DNA from: Octopus vulgaris | Lineage: Eukaryota | Length of the DNA: 64,000 nucleotides | NCBI GenBank assembly: GCA_951406725.2 | Contig: OX597843.1 | Span: 19,406,001-19,470,000, forward strand | Reading direction: 5' to 3' | Shown here: one piece after another, positions 32,548 to 41,747 of the stretch | Position numbering within the stretch: the first letter of the stretch is position 1 | Layout: each line of letters opens with the position of its first letter | The notes under the pieces: generated by a model | The model's database searches: none | Seen by the model: the letters and a program-made list of their open reading frames with translations, nothing else | Told to the model about the DNA's origin: nothing | Made by a program: the position numbers and the translations under genes

Positions 32548-32647
32548 NNNNNNNNNNNNNNNNNNNNNNNNNNNNNNNNNNNNNNNNNNNNNNNNNNNNN
32601 NNNNNNNNNNNNNNNNNNNNNNNNNNNNNNNNNNNNNNNNNNNNNNN
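32548..32647. other. Assembly gap (100 N, size unknown)
   Basis: Run of exactly 100 N. Confidence 1.
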
Positions 32648-35600
32648 AATATGAAGAAGGGAAAGGAGGAAGGAAGGGGGGAGAATGTGGAATAAAGAGG
32701 TAAAAGACCAGGAGAAATTGAGCTGAATATGGGAGGTGGGGAAGGAAAATGTCATAAAACATAAAGAACTATAGAAGTGGCAAGAGAATATGAAGAAGGA
32801 AAGGAGGAAGGAAGGGGGGAGAATGTGGAATAAAGAGGCAAAAGACCAGGAGAAATTGAGCTGAATTTGGGAGGTGGGGGAAGGAAAATGTCATAAAACA
32901 TAAAGAACTATAGAAGTGGCAAGAGAATGAAGAATGGAAAGGAGGAAGGAAGGGGGAGAATGTGGAATAAAGAGGCAAAAGACCAGGAAAATTGAGCTGA
33001 ATTTGGGAGGTGGGAAAGGAAAATGTCATAAAACATAAAGAACTATAGAAGTGGCAAGAGAATATGGAAGAAGGGAAAGGAGGAAGGAAGGGGGCTGAAT
33101 TTGGGAGGTGGGGAAGGAAAAGGAAATGTCATAAAACATAAAGAGACATAAGTGGCAGGCAAAATGGAAAGGAGGAAGGAAGAGGGAAGGAAATGTGGAA
33201 TAAAGAGGCCAGGAGAAATTGAGCTGAATTTGGGAGGTGGGGAAGGAAAATGTCATAAAACATAAAGAACTATAGAAGTGGCAAGAGAATATGAAGAAGG
33301 GAAAGGAGGAAGGAAGGGGGGAGAATGTGGAATAAAGAGGTAAAAGACCAGGAGAAATTGAGCTGAATTTGGGAGGTGGGGAAGGAAAATGTCATAAAAC
33401 ATAAAGAACTATAGAAGTGGCAAGAGAATATGAAGAAGGGAAACGAGGAAGGAAGGGGGGAGAATGTGGAATAAAGAGGCAAAAGACCAGGAGAAATTGA
33501 GCTGAATATGGGAGGTGGGGAAGGAAAATGTCATAAAACATAAAGAACTATAGAAGTGGCAAGAGAATATGAAGAAGGGAAAGGAGGAAGGAAGGGGGGA
33601 GAATGTGGAATAAAGAGGCCAAAGACCAGGAGAAATTGAGCTGAATTTGGGAGGTGGGGAAGGAAAATGTCATAAAACATAAAGAACTATAGAAGTGGCA
33701 AGACATTTTCCTTCCCCACCTCCCAAATTCAGCTCAATTTCTCCTGGTCTTTTACCTCTTTATTCCACATTCTCCCCCCTTCCTTCCTCCTTTCCCTTCT
33801 TCATATTCTCTTGCCACTTCTATAGTTCTTTATGTTTTATGACATTTTCCTTCCCCACCTCCCAAATTCAGCTCAATTTCTCCTGGTCTTTTACCTCTTT
33901 ATTCCACATTCTCCCCCTTCCTTCCTCCTTTCCCTTCTTCATATTCTCTTGCCACTTCTATAGTTCTTTATGTTTTATGACATTTTCCTTCCCCACCTCC
34001 CAAATTCAGCTCAATTTCTCCTGGTCTTTTACCTCTTTATTCCACATTCTCCCCCCTTCCTTCCTCCTTTCCCTTCTTCATTATTCTCTTGCCACTTCTA
34101 TAGTTCTTTATGTTTTATGACATTTTCCTTCCCCACCTCCCAAATTCAGCTCAATTTCTCCTGGTCTTTCACCTCTTTATTCCACATTCTCCCCCCTTCC
34201 TTCCTCCTTTCCCTTCTTCATATTCTCTTGCCACTTCTATAGTTCTTTATGTTTTATGACATTTTCCTTCCCCACCTCCCAAATTCAGCTCAATTTCTCC
34301 TGGTCTTTACCTCTTTATTCCACATTCTCCCCCCTTCCTTCCTCCTTTCCCTTCTTCATATTCTCTTGCCACTTCTATAGTTCTTTATGTTTTATGACAT
34401 TTTCCTTCCCCACCTCCCAAATTCAGCTCAATTTCTCCTGGTCTTTTACCTCTTTATTCCACATTCTCCCCCTTCCTTCCTCCTTTCCCTTCTTCATATT
34501 CTCTTGCCACTTCTATAGTTCTTTATGTTTTATGACATTTTCCTTCCCCACCTCCCAAATTCAGCTCAATTTCTCCTGGTCTTTACCTCTTTATTCCACA
34601 TTCTCCCCCTTCCTTCCTCCTTTCCCTTCTTCATATTCTCTTGCCACTTCTATAGTTCTTTATGTTTTATGACATTTTCCTTCCCCACCTCCCAAATTCA
34701 GCTCAATTTCTCCTGGTCTTTCACCTCTTTATTCCACATTCTCCCCCTTCCTTCCTCCTTTCCCTTCTTCATATTCTCTTGCCACTTCTATAGTTCTTTA
34801 TGTTTTATGACATTTTCCTTCCCCACCTCCCAAATTCAGCTCAATTTCTCCTGGTCTTTTACCTCTTTATTCCACATTCTCCCCCTTCCTTCCTCCTTTC
34901 CCTTCTTCATATTCTCTTGCCACTTCTATAGTTCTTTATGTTTTATGACATTTTCCTTCCCCACCTCCCATATTCAGCTCAATTTCTCCTGGTCTTTTAC
35001 CTCTTTATTCCACATTCTCCCCCTTCCTTCCTCCTTTCCCTTCTTCATATTCTCTTGCCACTTCTATAGTTCTTTATGTTTTATGACATTTTCCTTCCCC
35101 ACCTCCCAAATTCAGCTCAATTTCTCCTGGTCTTTTGCCTCTTTATTCCACATTCTCCCCCCTTCCTTCCTCCTTTCCCTTCTTCATATTCTCTTGCCAC
35201 TTCTATAGTTCTTTATGTTTTATGACATTTTCCTTCCCCACCTCCCAAATTCAGCTCAATTTCTCCTGGTCTTTTGCCTCTTTATTCCACATTCTCCCCC
35301 TTCCTTCCTCCTTTCCCTTCTTCATATTCTCTTGCCACTTCTATAGTTCTTTATGTTTTATGACATTTTCCTTCCCCACCTCCCATATTCAGCTCAATTT
35401 CTCCTGGTCTTTTACCTCTTTATTCCACATTCTCCCCCTTCCTTCCTCCTTTCCCTTCTTCATATTCTCTTGCCACTTCTATAGTTCTTTATGTTTTATG
35501 ACATTTTCCTTCCCCACCTCCCATATTCAGCTCAATTTCTCCTGGTCTTTTACCTCTTTATTCCACATTCTCCCCCCTTCCTTCCTCCTTTCCCTTCTTC

Positions 35601-38600
35601 ATATTCTCTTGCCACTTCTATAGTTCTTTATGTTTTATGACATTTTCCTTCCCCACCTCCCATATTCAGCTCAATTTCTCCTGGTCTTTTACCTCTTTAT
35701 TCCACATTCTCCCCCTTCCTTCCTCCTTTCCCTTCTTCATATTCTCTTGCCACTTCTATAGTTATTTATGTTTTATGACATTTTCCTTCCCCACCTCCCA
35801 TATTCAGCTCAATTTCTCCTGGTCTTTAGCCTCTTTATTCCACATTCTCCCCCTTCCTTCCTCCTTTCCCTTCTTCATATTCTCTTGCCACTTCTATAGT
35901 TCTTTATGTTTTATGACATTTTCCTTCCCCACCTCCCAAATTCAGCTCAATTTCTCCTGGTCTTTACCTCTTTATTCCACATTCTCCCCCTTCCTTCCTC
36001 CTTTCCCTTCTTCATATTCTCTTGCCACTTCTATAGTTCTTTATGTTTTATGACATTTTCCTTCCCCACCTCCCAAATTCAGCTCAATTTCTCCTGGTCT
36101 TTTACCTCTTTATTCCACATTCTCCCCCTTCCTTCCTCCTTTCCCTTCTTCATATTCTCTTGCCACTTCTATAGTTCTTTATGTTTTATGACATTTTCCT
36201 TCCCCACCTCCCAAATTCAGCTCAATTTCTCCTGGTCTTTGCCTCTTTATTCCACATTCTCCCCCCTTCCTTCCTCCTTTCCCTTCTTCATATTCTCTTG
36301 CCACTTCTATAGTTCTTTATGTTTTATGACATTTTCCTTCCCCACCTCCCATATTCAGCTCAATTTCTCCTGGTCTTTTACCTCTTTATTCCACATTCTC
36401 CCCCCTTCCTTCCTCCTTTCCCTTCTTCATATTCTCTTGCCACTTCTATAGTTCTTTATGTTTTATGACATTTTCCTTCCCCACCTCCCATATTCAGCTC
36501 AATTTCTCCTGCTCTTTTGCCTCTTTATTCCACATTCCCCCCCTTCCTTCCTCGTTTCCCTTCTTCATATTCTCTTGCCACTTCTATAGTTCTTTATGTT
36601 TTATGACATTTTCCTTCCCCACCTCCCATATTCAGCTCAATTTCTCCTGGTCTTTTACCTCTTTATTCCACATTCTCCCCCCTTCCTTCCTCGTTTCCCT
36701 TCTTCATATTCTCTTGCCACTTCTATAGTTCTTTATGTTTTATGACATTTTCCTTCCCCACCTCCCAAATTCAGCTCAATTTCTCCTGGTCTTTAGCCTC
36801 TTTATTCCACATTCTCCCCCCTTCCTTCCTTGTTTCCCTTCATCATATTCTCTTGCCACTTCTATAGTTCTTTATGTTTTATGACATTTTCCTTCCCCAC
36901 CTCCCATATTCAGCTCAATTTCTCCTGGTCTTTCACCTCTTTATTCCACATTCTCCCCCCTTCCTTCCTCCTTTCCCTTCTTCATATTCTCTTGCCACTT
37001 CTATAGTTCTTTATGTTTTATGACATTTTCCTTCCCCACCTCCCATATTCAGCTCAATTTCTCCTGGTCTTTCACCTCTTTATTCCACATTCTCCCCCCC
37101 TTCCTTCCTCCATTCCCTTCTTCATATTCTCTTGCCACTTCTATAGTTCTTTATGTTTTATGACATTTTCCTTCCCCACCTCCCAAATTCAGCTCAATTT
37201 CTCCTGGTCTTTCACCTCTTTATTCCACATTCTCCCCCCTTCCTTCCTTGTTTCCCTTCATCATATTCTCTTGCCACTTCTATAGTTCTATATGTTTTAT
37301 GACATTTTCCTTCCCCACCTCCCATATTCAGCTCAATTTCTCCTGGTCTTTTACCTCTTTATTCCACATTCTCCCCCCTTCCTTCCTTGTTTCCCTTCTT
37401 CATATTCTCTTGCCACTTCTATAGTTCTTTATGTTTTATGACATTTTCCTTCCCCACCTCCCATATTCAGCTCAATTTCTCCTGGTCTTTCACCTCTTTA
37501 TTCCACATTCTCCCCCCTTCCTTCCTCCTTTCCCTTCTTCATATTCTCTTGCCACTTCTATAGTTCTTTATGTTTTATGACATTTTCCTTCCCCACCTCC
37601 CAAATTCAGCTCAATTTCTCCTGGTCTTTTGCCTCTTTATTCCACATTCTCCCCCCTTCCTTCCTCGTTTCACTTCTTCATATTCTCTTGCCACTTCTAT
37701 AGTTCTTTATGTTTTATGACATTTTCCTTCCCCACCTCCCATATTCAGCTCAATTTCTCCTGGTCTTTTCACATTCTCCCCTTATTCCACATTCTCCCCC
37801 TTCCTTCCTCCTTTCCCTTCTTCATATTCTCTTGCCACTTCTATAGTTCTTTATGTTTTATGACATTTTCCTTCCCCACCTCCCATATTCAGCTCAATTT
37901 CTCCTGGTCTTTTGCCTCTTTATTCCCCATTCTCCCCCTTCCTTCCTTGTTTCCCTTCTTCATATTCTCTTGCCACTTCTATAGTTCTTTATGTTTTATG
38001 ACATTTTCCTTCCCCACCTCCCATATTCAGCTCAATTTCTCCTGGTCTTTTGCCTCTTTATTCCACATTCTCCCCCTTCCTTCCTCCTTTCCCTTCTTTA
38101 TATTCTCTTGCCACTTCTATATTTCTTTATGTTTTATGACATTTTCCTTCCCCACCTTCCATATTCAGCTCAATTTCTCCTGGTCTTTTACCTCTTTATT
38201 CCACATTCTCCCCCCTTCCTTCCTTGTTTCCCTTCTTCATATTCTCTTGCCACTTCTATAGTTCTTTATGTTTTATGACATTTTCCTTCCCCACCTCCCA
38301 TATTCAGCTCAATTTCTCCTGGTCTTTTGCCTCTTTATTCCACATTCTCCCCCCTTCCTTCCTTCCTTTCCCTTCTTCATATTCTCTTGCCACTTCTATA
38401 GTTCTTTATGTTTTATGACATTTTCCTTCCCCACCTCCCATATTCAGCTCAATTTCTCCTGGTCTTTTGCCTCTTTATTCCACATTCTCCCCCCCCTTCC
38501 TTCCTCGTTTCCCTTCTTCATATTCTCTTGCCACTTCTATAGTTCTTTATGTTTTATGACATTTTCCTTCCCCACCTCCCATATTCAGCTCAATTTCTCC

Positions 38601-39200
38601 TGGTCTTTCGCCTCTTTATTCCACATTCTCCCCCTTCCTTCCTCGTTTCCCTTCTTCATATTCTCTTGCCACTTCTATAGTTCTTTATGTTTTATGACAT
38701 TTTCCTTCCCCACCTCCCATATTCAGCTCAATTTCTCCTGGTCTTTTGCCTCTTTATTCCACATTCCCCCCTTCCTTCCTCGTTTCCCTTCTTCATATTC
38801 TCTTGCCACTTCTATAGTTCTTTATGTTTTATGACATTTTCCTTCCCCACCTCCCAAATTCAGCTCAATTTCTCCTGGTCTTTCACCTCTTTATTCCACA
38901 TTCTCGCCCCTTCCTTCCTTGTTTCCCTTCTTCATATTCTCTTGCCACTTCTATAGTTCTTTATGTTTTATGACATTTTCCTTCCCCACCTCCCTTATTC
39001 AGCTCAATTTCTCCTGGTCTTTGGCCTCTTTATTCCACATTCTCCCCCCTTCCTTCCTCCATTCCTTTCTTCATATTCTCTTGCCACTTCTATAGTTCTT
39101 TATGTTTTATGACATTTCCCTTCCCCACCTCCCATATTCAGCTCAATTTCTCCTGGTCTTTCGCCTCTTTATTCCACATTCTCCCCCCTTCCTTCCTCCT
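32648..39200. repeat. 138-139-bp satellite array: about 7 inverted copies, then about 40 forward copies
   Basis: Monomer GACATTTTCCTTCCCCACCTCCCA(A/T)ATTCAGCTCAATTTCTCCTGGTC...CTATAGTTCTTTATGTTTTAT (starts at 33841, 33979, 34119, 34258). Orientation flips at about 33700. Confidence 0.97.
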
Positions 39201-39310: not shown

Positions 39311-39382
39311 AACTTTGGAATATAATAAAATCGAAAAGGTCGAAAGTGGAATATTTCAAGGACTTACTTATTTAGAGAAATT
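39311..39382 (+). CDS. LRR protein exon A (72 bp)
   Basis: TACAG|A ACT TTG...AAA TT|GTAAGT encodes TLEYNKIEKVESGIFQGLTYLEKL, a typical 24-aa LRR. Confidence 0.9.
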
Positions 39383-39616
39383 GTAAGTACAATTTTTGTT
39401 CATAATTTTTTTAACTAACGGAATATCACTAGAAATTCCATGTCCTCTCTTTCTTGCTATCTCTCCCTCTGCTTTTCTAATACATATTCTGTCATTATAT
39501 TTTCGTTTGTGATTGTATGAAGATGTGAACGAGTGTGTCTGTGTGTCCGTGTGTGAATAAACAAATGTTTTGCGTATGATAATGAACATATGCATGAGTG
39601 TGAACATGTCAACAAA

Positions 39617-39982
39617 GGCGCCGAGCTGGCAGAAACTATGCGCCAAGGTGGACTTCGTCTTTCAACCTTTTGGGGTCGATAAATTAAGCATTAATTGCGT
39701 ACTGTGACGATCTAATTAACGGGCCCAGTTGCCAACATTTTGGGGCCTTGTCCCTAAAGTAGAAACGAATGTTTTAAAGGCGGCGAGCTGGCAGAATTCT
39801 CAGCACAACGGGCGAAATGCTTAGCGGTATTTCGTCTGTCTTTATGTTCTGAGTTCAAATTCCGCCGAGACCGACTTTGCCTTTCAGGGTCGATAAATTA
39901 AGTAACAGTTGCAAACTGCGGTTGATCTAATCAACTGGCCCCCGCCCCAAAAATTTCGGGCCTTGTGCCTAGAGTAGAAATG
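39617..39982 (+). mobile_element. Two tandem SINE family 3 copies
   Basis: GGCGCCGAGCTGGCAGAA at 39617 and GGCGGCGAGCTGGCAGAA at 39779, both with GGTCGATAAATTAAG. Confidence 0.8.
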
Positions 39983-40072
39983 AACATGTATATCTGTATC
40001 TGCGTGTGTCGTGTCCATTCGTGTCTCTGCGTGTCTGTAAGAAAATACATACTTACAGAAAACCAAATTATC

Positions 40073-40624
40073 AGGGTTGGCCTCCCTTTGCAAATACTCC
40101 AAGGACACAGATATTGTGTCTAGCGCCAGCTAGAGACGAAGATCTCTTGGGGCTATAAAGCTACAGTAACACCCCCTCCCCAATGTGATTAGCCATGATA
40201 AGATGGCTTCTATACTTTACATTATCGAGCGATTACTGTTTCAATCTCATTTTGAGATTTAATTATGCTTACTGTTCGTTTTTCGACATCAGTGGCAGAC
40301 GCCATTAGAAAAACTTATATCTATTTGCAAAGGAGCCTTCACTTTCATCGCTACCTGGTGGTTACCGCCCGTTGACGAGGGACAACATTCCCGAAACTAG
40401 TTCGAGCGTATCACTCAGGCTTGCGAGGAAGGGATGGCCTCCCTTTGCAAATACTCCAAGGACACAGATATTGTGTCTAGAGCCAGCTAGAGACGAAGAT
40501 CTCTTGGGGCTATAAAGCTACAGTAACACCCCCTCCCCAATGTGGTTAGCCATGATAAGATGGCTTCTATACTTTACATTATCGAGCGATTACTGTTTCA
40601 ATCTCATTCTGAGATTTAATTATG
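40073..40624 (+). mobile_element. 1.5-copy tandem element (357-bp period) with hammerhead motif: Penelope pseudo-LTR or non-LTR retrozyme-like
   Basis: 40073-40267 is repeated at 40430-40624 with about 4 differences. The sequence between them carries a minimal type I hammerhead motif. Confidence 0.6.
40363..40410 (+). ncRNA. Minimal type I hammerhead ribozyme-like motif
   Basis: CGCCCG-TTGACGA-GGGA(caacat)TCCC-GAAA-CTAG-TT-CGAGCG: stem I with one mismatch, core with C3U, 4-bp stem II, palindromic mini stem III, GUU triplet. Confidence 0.55.
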
Positions 40625-41675
40625 TTTTTACACTGTTTTACACAAAGACAAAGTGTGAGCAATATACTTTCATCGAGAGTTACTTCACGCAGGGAATTAT
40701 AAGATTTTATTAATATTCATGGATAGCCTATTGCTTAGGACTCAGATATCACAAAGGAACATCTCTCGGCTAACACACACATACATATAATCACATACAC
40801 TCGCATTTACACTCAGACACATACGCATATATAATACAGGGACAGTTGTTTGTGTAGAAGGAATGTTGTTACAAAGCACATGGTTTAAAACACAGTATAA
40901 ATCTGTGGCCCGCCGTGCGCCTGACTTTTCTTTCTACCTCACGTCCAATCAATTCCAGTCTGCTGTATGATGCATGTATATGCATATATGGGGGTCTTTG
41001 TGTCTACTTTTGGCCCCAACTACCTCTTAACAAACAACTTCTATCCCTATTTATTTTCATCCTATCCTTTGTGTTTCTTCTTCTTCTTCTTCTTCTTCTT
41101 CTTCTCCCTCCTCCCTCCTCTTCTTCTTCGCGTTGTTCTGTTTCTTATTCGTATCCTCTTCCTCTCCTCCTCTTCCATCTTCTTCTTTTCCTTCTTCTTC
41201 TTCTCCTTCTATCTCTTCGTTTTCTCCTCCCTCTTCTTCTTCTTTCTCTTCTCCTCCTCCTCCCTCTCCTTCTTCTTCTTCTTCTTCTTCTTTTCTTCCT
41301 TCTTTTTCTTCTTGTCTTCCTTCTTTTTTCTTCTTCTTCTTCTTCTTCTTCTTCTTCTTCTTTCTTTTTATAATCCTTTAATTTCTCTAATTCTTCTTCC
41401 TCTTTTACTATTTCTTCTCCATCTTCTTCTCGTTGTTCTTCTTTGAGAGCTTATTCTTTTCCTTTTTCTTCTCTTGCCCCTTCTTCATTTTCTTGTTCTT
41501 TGCGTTTTACGTGTGCTTCTTTGACTTTTTCCTTCTCCTTATTCTTGTTTTTCTTCCTATTCTTCGTGTTTACCAATATGCCTTGTCATTGTTTATTTCA
41601 ATTCAGACCCACATTATTGCATATGTTGCCACAAATATTTTCCATGATTCTTACCCTTGTTCTTTATTGCTACAG

Positions 41676-41747
41676 ATATTTAAACGGAAATAATATTTCG
41701 AGTATTGAACAAGGAAGCTTCGAAGGTCTTCATCGATTGCTGCAATT
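41676..41747 (+). CDS. LRR protein exon B (72 bp)
   Basis: YLNGNNISSIEQGSFEGLHRLLQL; TACAG and GTAAGT; phase 2-2. Confidence 0.9.

Follow-up and report, generated by a model that had tools for sequence, protein, structure and literature searches.

A dispersed retrozyme family of Octopus vulgaris with a predicted hammerhead ribozyme and Penelope-type insertion ends

Introduction

The non-LTR retrozymes of metazoans, among them axolotl HHR_Amex1 and the mussel repeats, are protein-free tandem units of 170–400 nt with a GC content below 45%. In the available text of PMC7229834, each unit carries one type I hammerhead ribozyme with a weak helix III and a palindromic tetraloop, the monomer as a whole is highly self-paired, and Penelope elements are proposed as the mobilisers. 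Vertebrate retrozymes (Li, Clavereau, Pollet 2026; 10.64898/2026.07.22.740005) are non-autonomous hammerhead repeats tied to Penelope elements, and the accessible part of that source treats retrozyme monomers as dead-end offspring. Transcription and copy-back of animal retrozymes have so far been proposed more than shown. For newt satellite 2, also a hammerhead tandem repeat, an internal snRNA-type promoter was shown by experiment (as cited in the portion of PMC2220036 at hand).

Two kinds of autonomous element are also close at hand. The Penelope elements with a GIY-YIG endonuclease are marked by 5' truncation, partial tandems and an inverted 5' arm, as well as by an optional tail between two internal starts, AT-rich or TA targets and a hammerhead with a palindromic loop (available sections of PMC8557442, PMC11167929 and PMC4209133); the canonical endonuclease-bearing members have one ORF (PMC8557442, same sections). 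Among the target-specific LINEs of the Tx1 clade, Keno inserts in U2 genes, Tx1L in Tx1D and Tx1-Mar in Mariner-N4 (PMC4494074, as far as its available text goes).

The octopus unit considered here is like the metazoan retrozymes in size, composition, ribozyme layout and self-pairing, like the vertebrate ones in its tie to Penelope elements, and like the Penelope elements in all of the insertion features just named. It lies in the window, meaning the whole 64-kb stretch of DNA that was analysed. The window element is a non-LTR retrozyme, one 5'-truncated member of a dispersed family. No cephalopod retrozyme was found in the literature search, from which the species tables of PMC7229834 and 10.64898/2026.07.22.740005 lay outside. 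The kind of element is already known; the value of this family lies in its predicted start site, in a one-of-each rule for its insertion ends, and in a LINE target that it has in common with the U2 genes.

Results

The repeat map and contigs of the empty site place the insertion at 40075..40625 on the + strand, as a 5'-truncated single arm of 1.55 units with the long (tailed) end; an earlier note on this DNA had put the partial tandem at 1.5 monomers. The unit is 357 nt long, with a GC content of 44.5%. Unit positions 1–198 are present twice, at 40073..40270 and 40430..40627 (+), so that two direct repeats of 198 nt lie 357 nt apart. They differ at five positions (40077, 40124, 40188, 40252 and 40268), two of which are junction positions. 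The spacing of 357 bp had been given correctly before, and the repeat length of 195 bp and the count of about four differences are replaced by these figures. There is no ORF, as had been noted: the longest stop-free frame of the unit on either strand is 68 aa, whether it is read as a linear molecule or as a circle.

Host LRR exons of 72 nt, located by exon mapping, lie on the + strand both upstream (39311..39382) and downstream (41676..41747). The element is thus intronic and in sense to its host, as first described. No other 14-mer of the unit occurs within the 64-kb window outside the insertion, in agreement with its reported absence from the paralogous intron; since the paralogous introns are only about 70% identical, this absence is weak evidence of youth. 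The suggestion that the insertion looks recent gains from the empty site, which was seen in contigs of runs X15 and X16, two runs of one study of which either may itself be the source of the assembly. These contigs connect 40074 to 40626 with eight different letters between, so that the copy displaced about 8 target bases and made no target duplication. The end of the copy, TAATTATG, is similar to the displaced target, AATAATTG. The two repeats already differ at three internal sites, so the insertion is not brand new. It is probably an intronic polymorphism, neutral for the host LRR gene. Active copies are described as having two consecutive ribozymes (Li 2026); the window copy has one and should not release monomers for that reason. 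Two-ribozyme copies exist elsewhere in the family, for example at L004.

Several other features of the surroundings may be recorded. The LRR gene (window 39311–59963) has at least nine exons of 72 nt and internally duplicated blocks that are about 70% identical. Just upstream of the insertion, at 39600–39985, are two adjoining copies of a very abundant SINE, which presumably resembles octopus SINEs. An array of 139-bp units, about 5.5 kb, is found at 32648–39200, and its inverted block (32648–33703) adjoins a 100-N gap at 32548–32647.

Genome-wide searches of the 2.8-Gb assembly, which the earlier note had proposed as a check with the 357-mer, showed the unit to be multicopy and dispersed, with tandem copies present. 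The unit itself gave 1646 candidate places, 40 of which were scored and contained 134 matches, the best of them 92–99% identical. The ribozyme pattern has 240 exact matches in the genome and a 33-mer near the 3' end has 647, with none for the controls in either case. Unit size, low GC content, hammerhead, lack of coding capacity, tandem arrangement and dispersal are all as in metazoan non-LTR retrozymes, which upholds the label "retrozyme-like" under which the element was first described.

The relatives of the window unit's own family (family A) extend over a considerable range. Family C is about 90% identical to the unit (61 matches), families E and B are about 72% and 70% identical, and D and F are more remote still. 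ORF-less tandem units likewise make up B, D and E. The ribozyme-model search covered 55 sequence sources, and further families or a partner element may have been missed. One candidate family with the loop CGCG, which came from a mixed loose-end consensus, had no genome matches and was discarded. Hammerhead repeats of two distant families were noticed at L227:3719 and L228:1778, with the combinations UUGAUAA with ACAUGU and CUGAUGA with ACUAGU.

The predicted type I hammerhead occupies 40366..40408 (+), on the evidence of its motif, covariation and palindromic loop. It is made up of the 5' strand of stem I, CGCCCG (40366–40371); the core UUGACGA, TTGACGA in the DNA (40372–40378); stem II, GGGA/UCCC (40379–40392); GAAA (40393–40396); the palindromic loop III, CUAG (CTAG in the DNA, 40397–40400); the UU of GUU (40401–40402), with the predicted cut after 40402; and the 3' strand of stem I, CGAGCG (40403–40408). 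Every part proposed from the first inspection is in place, and a single C·A mismatch interrupts stem I. No second such motif exists in the 64-kb window, and none of 20000 shuffles of the 555-nt track contains one. For the ribozyme by itself, the fold is no more stable than that of shuffles (z 0.33), and Rfam returns no hammerhead match at E<=10. The whole 357-nt monomer folds well (z -4.4, with none of 100 shuffles as good). Its predicted fold is a long rod (40324..40451, +) with arms at 40324–40335 and 40439–40451 and the hammerhead at its tip, and such a rod would keep the cut ends together. A "minimal" hammerhead had been claimed originally. The hammerhead itself stands; its layout is the canonical 6-bp/4-bp one, with one or two pairs in helix III, and not the minimal form without this helix that Penelope ends have.

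Comparison between copies bears on the state of the core. Across family A copies, U3 is found in 61 of 63 observations and G8 in 59 of 63, so that U3·G8 is the family norm, and not, as the earlier note had it, a C3U change of this copy. The 3-8 pair is U·G in family A and most of E, U-A in C and D, and C-G in B and F. All six families have a palindrome in loop III, with four different sequences among them. Over the 25 sequences compared from families A, B and C, the predicted pairs form in 91.3% of cells, against 25–53% in slid controls. Double changes among these three families occur in stem I (G-C/A-U), in stem II (A-U/G-C) and in the 3-8 pair (C-G/U-A). The pairs with double changes number 5, against 3.1 in shuffles, of which 39 in 500 are equally high in a control that ignores relatedness; the covariation signal consists of few independent, family-level events. 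To judge from its sequence, the family A core looks the weakest, with its U3·G8 wobble, its GUU and the mismatch in stem I. No paper on a U3·G8 wobble in hammerheads was found in the literature; a U3-A8 covariant and dimer-favouring palindromic loops have been reported (PMC4209133, available part). In Xenopus, eight of nine predicted retrozyme dimers failed to cleave, according to the accessible text of 10.64898/2026.07.22.740005. A dimer of the octopus ribozyme region is predicted to be 5.4 kcal/mol more stable than two monomers, a difference too weak to count. The family presents a hammerhead that has spread with a U3·G8 core.

How do the copies end? The first 100 of the 647 33-mer matches belong to 68 insertions, and 66 of these were mapped, which gave 97 arms. 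Within this 66-insertion sample the 5' ends vary freely, and the 3' ends cluster at two fixed points some 45 nt from each other: 52 of the 97 at unit 148–155 and 37 at unit 190–204, with 8 elsewhere. The short end site in the window (unit 148–153, TTTACATTAT) is at 40577..40582 and also at 40220–40225 (+). The Penelope-type tail that leads on to the long end, with the hairpin AATCTCA/TGAGATT in the monomer fold, is at 40583..40627 (+). By arrangement, the 66 insertions comprise 36 single arms, 29 head-to-head pairs and one complex case. A short end is combined with a long end in 24 of the 29 pairs, two like ends in none, and some other end is involved in the remaining 5; one of each in 24 of 24 pairs would arise by chance with a probability of 3e-8. 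TA repeats adjoin 39 of the 89 ends in the same sample. At non-microsatellite sites, duplications of 7–16 nt are present in 18 of 35, against 58 of 1190 controls. Such dispersal, with duplications of more than 4 bp when present, is that of retrotransposed retrozymes; the window copy has no duplication.

The optional tail, the inverted 5' arm, the partial tandems and the TA targets are all found, as in Penelope-like elements. A young Penelope-like element of this genome, with a 781-aa frame that contains RT and GIY-YIG domains, ends after the same TTTACA in 13 of 17 copies and about 43 nt later in 4 of 17. Two of its inverted arms can be followed to an end, and each has the short end and faces an arm with the long one. 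Experiments with a Penelope protein in vitro have shown extension of both strands, with starts at two internal positions by which the tail is defined (PMC11167929, in the sections available). The retrozyme bears the Penelope insertion signature without an ORF, and the enzyme that pastes the unit in is likely to be of Penelope type. The unit behaves as a non-autonomous Penelope passenger, a link proposed in the available text of PMC7229834 and argued for vertebrates in that of 10.64898/2026.07.22.740005.

These same ends, tails, inversions and TA targets, all of Penelope type (PMC8557442, available text), could also mean that an autonomous Penelope-like element has the unit as its terminal repeat, and that the copies are truncated ends of that element. 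Xenopus retrozymes are similar to Penelope terminal repeats (10.64898/2026.07.22.740005, in the part available), and four octopus loci (L101, L194, L205 and L207) have a same-strand Penelope fragment 1.3–2.1 kb upstream of the copy. Such an origin is nevertheless very improbable. What follows in the arms longer than one unit (26 of 89, the longest being 896 nt) is more of the same unit, to a maximum of 2.5 units. The earlier note had called for a search for an adjacent Penelope RT; in L001–L050, L101–L150 and the 66-locus sample (flanks of 1.5–5 kb) no copy has a Penelope ORF next to it, in keeping with the view that the unit is not tied to an RT ORF. The 50 GIY-YIG loci examined, which come from 6136 candidates of which 150 were scored, do not have the unit as terminal repeat in any case, nor do the loci of unit copies examined show the ORF with RT and GIY-YIG between terminal repeats that marks an autonomous Penelope element. 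Families B, D and E, being ORF-less tandems, speak against it too. At L098/L101, the only one of the four loci read base by base, the Penelope element contains a ribozyme of its own and stops in TA repeats before the copy is reached. The 781-aa element was rejected as sequence parent of the unit, since the alignment of its terminal repeat with the unit does not rise above shuffles. Two same-strand ribozymes 3667 bp apart on C6 were considered as a full Penelope element and rejected as well, the filling being a nested LINE. What remains preferred is the passenger relation, in which a Penelope-type enzyme acts on a unit that has no ORF.

The young Penelope-like element (L081–L097, e.g. L084:244–5490) has identical terminal repeats of about 500 bp. 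Its 781-aa frame is preceded and overlapped by another of 479 aa, which L084, L092 and L094 have intact and for which no convincing Pfam match was found. CCAAT-like motifs and TGACGTC recur in the 3' region of the element, where there is also a candidate hammerhead with UUGAUAA. A second Penelope family, at L098:4795–4850, has its own hammerhead, with a palindromic GUAC loop, about 500 nt past the ORF.

Which RNA was copied? One possibility is that the same family and the same Penelope enzyme worked from linear, uncleaved RNA, transcribed from tandem copies or by host read-through, the family A ribozyme being slow or vestigial and the tandems arising from template jumps. Uncleaved RNA is indeed the main substrate of the Penelope protein in vitro, and ribozyme cleavage is dispensable there (PMC11167929, available sections). 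The U3·G8 and GUU core would suit a slow ribozyme, and an apparent arm pair with 3.3 kb of LINE at L250 suggests that long RNAs can be copied. The cut site is crossed by 49 arms without a stop, and two cut sites by 3, which a circle would explain equally. On the other hand, RNAs started at the promoter should leave 5' ends at the predicted start (unit 275), where 2 were seen and 2.55 expected; at the cut site (unit 331) there were 3 against 3.1 expected. No pile-up exists at either place. Copying of a promoter-started linear RNA would halt at 275 and that of a cleaved linear monomer at 331, so that a circle is the simplest explanation of the lack of excess. The two or three repeats of one insertion, furthermore, have rare variants in common: in a tally of 89 loci, in which one insertion was entered twice (L014 and L182), 17 such variants are common to all repeats of an insertion, and divergence is 2.2% between repeats inside one insertion and 3.7% between insertions. 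In the copies listed, the sequence passes over the cut site without a seam, and both the ribozyme and the end-joining rod are conserved between families 28–30% apart. A linear template is on these grounds rather unlikely, and a circular RNA of about 357 nt is a plausible template as far as genomic copies can tell.

Reads were also consulted for the circle itself. In four runs that were guessed to be RNA, the contigs were scattered. Run X19, the kind of which is not stated, yielded one contig of 387 nt whose end rejoins its beginning at 357, as would also be expected from low-coverage tandem-copy DNA. A depth of about 1000 in X6, a run guessed to be RNA, was rejected as an abundant retrozyme circle, because the signal runs on into unique DNA at three paralogous C27 loci. 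The copy there (L151–L153, in a triplicated segment) is a 5'-truncated member of family C that lacks the ribozyme core.

The unit has a predicted snRNA-type promoter. The 10-nt PSE-like element ACATCAGTGG at 40286..40295 (+) is identical and in register in the unit and in the DNA upstream of U2 genes, at -61 to -52 from ATCG in both, and a run like it was reached in 80 of 200000 shuffles. A similar motif is found in families B, C and E at -60 to -63. The proximal element of snRNA genes lies 60 bp upstream of the start (PMC4494074, in the text available), and the octopus motif has this spacing, consistent with a start at unit 275. In the window, the predicted start (ATCG at 40347), together with the LINE target as defined by LINE junctions and leaders, lies at 40343..40363 (+), and no LINE is present in this copy. 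Two things underlie the start-site prediction, the spacing of the motif and a LINE jump that was probably a single ancestral event. No literature that joins a proximal sequence element with a retrozyme was found. The motif is accompanied by at least one ribozyme in 33 of 89 arms and by two ribozymes in 1 of 89.

The LINE concerned is 5.5 kb long, with zinc-knuckle, APE, RT and zf-RVT domains, and is apparently of L1/Tx1 type, a clade assignment made by domain layout only. Its 3' 25-mer has 14 exact matches in the genome. At 5 of the 14 the LINE stands at the first base of a U2 gene (U2 as recognised by Rfam), in one case followed by a second LINE; at the other 9 it stands at retrozyme unit 269–273, in family A three times and in family E six times. 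Two of the six family E insertions are arms of one inverted structure, so that there were fewer than nine events. All four 5' junctions seen for LINEs in U2 genes begin, past the U2 duplication, with a family A leader from unit 275. These leaders have one change in common and therefore probably go back to one event.

The repeated presence of this LINE in the unit might be taken to mean that the unit is a SINE-like passenger of the LINE. That reading has been largely refuted by the structure of the ends and hardly merits belief: the LINE is nested in the unit, with duplications of 17–21 nt and its own A-rich end, and the unit has no poly(A) tail and no 3' end in common with the LINE, its ends being of Penelope type. 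The LINE copies, moreover, are 98–100% identical, and their hosts are 83–97.5% identical in family E and 93–96.5% in family A. That the LINE copies are more alike than the host copies points to separate recent LINE insertions into older retrozyme copies. The sites chosen by this LINE lie in a mobile element with a ribozyme and in a gene for an essential RNA.

The LINE was seen in U2 genes at L242, L243 and L245 (C3 and C23), with tandem LINEs at one U2 start in L243, and in retrozymes at L225, L249, L265, L269 and L270. An internally deleted LINE copy at L031 is duplicated as L224. An older related LINE (64–82% identity) lies beside unit 291 of a family C copy at L226 (C10). At L250, also on C10, a 5'-truncated LINE is fused to an inverted long-end retrozyme arm, a structure that the Penelope enzyme may have made from a joint retrozyme-LINE RNA.

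Discussion

The stretch in the window is, with good probability, a retrozyme copy with a predicted hammerhead, likely to have been inserted by a Penelope enzyme and probably from a circular RNA template. The life cycle might run as follows. RNA polymerase II would start at unit 275, directed by the snRNA-type element 61 nt upstream, and the start would lie 56 nt before the cut. In those rare copies that have two ribozymes behind the promoter, the hammerheads would excise a 357-nt monomer, probably while paired via their palindromic loops, and the monomer ends, held together, would be ligated. A Penelope protein with RT and GIY-YIG domains would then nick AT-rich DNA and prime at one of the two internal sites about 45 nt apart, and where both strands are extended, one arm would come from each site; the pattern of ends is observed, and the enzyme is that which such a pattern suggests. 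The products are 5'-truncated single arms, head-to-head pairs and partial tandems. The window copy presumably started at the long site. About 8 bases of the target were lost in its insertion, and with its one ribozyme it would be a dead end as a source of circles.

A wider and more tentative picture, possible without being favoured, is a parasite system of three layers. A retrozyme with a U2-type promoter would be copied as a circle by Penelope, from two fixed sites, one on each strand and never the same twice; a LINE that alternates between the starts of retrozymes and those of U2 genes would in turn use it as its chief landing site and as the origin of its promoter. In any case the family supplies testable coordinates, namely a predicted start and a promoter element with a counterpart at the U2 genes of the same genome. 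Given the ORF-less 357-nt RNA in vitro, a Penelope protein would be expected to use the two fixed copying sites and to obey the strict one-of-each rule.

How, then, does the octopus family differ from the systems with which it has so much in common? Metazoan retrozymes, as described in the available part of PMC7229834, form long arrays, whereas the octopus unit occurs mostly as dispersed partial units and head-to-head pairs; it also has U3·G8 as its family state and ends at two fixed sites. Compared with the Penelope GIY-YIG elements, in the accessible text on them (PMC8557442, PMC11167929, PMC4209133), the unit lacks an ORF, its tail is about 45 nt long and not 30–40, its ribozyme is the canonical 6-bp/4-bp one, and no homologous terminal repeat was found in 50 GIY-YIG loci. 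The link to Penelope was drawn for vertebrates from co-occurrence and terminal-repeat similarity (10.64898/2026.07.22.740005, in the part available) and is drawn in the octopus from insertion ends. The promoter shown by experiment in newt satellite 2 (PMC2220036, available text) has its octopus counterpart in a prediction from U2 upstream identity and LINE junctions. The octopus LINE, finally, is like the Tx1-clade elements in its APE-RT arrangement, its zinc-knuckle ORF1 and its choice of U2 genes or another mobile element as target. In the available description of that clade (PMC4494074) these targets belong to different elements, whereas in the octopus one family hits both U2 +1 and retrozyme unit 275, at sites that have the same upstream motif and ATCG.
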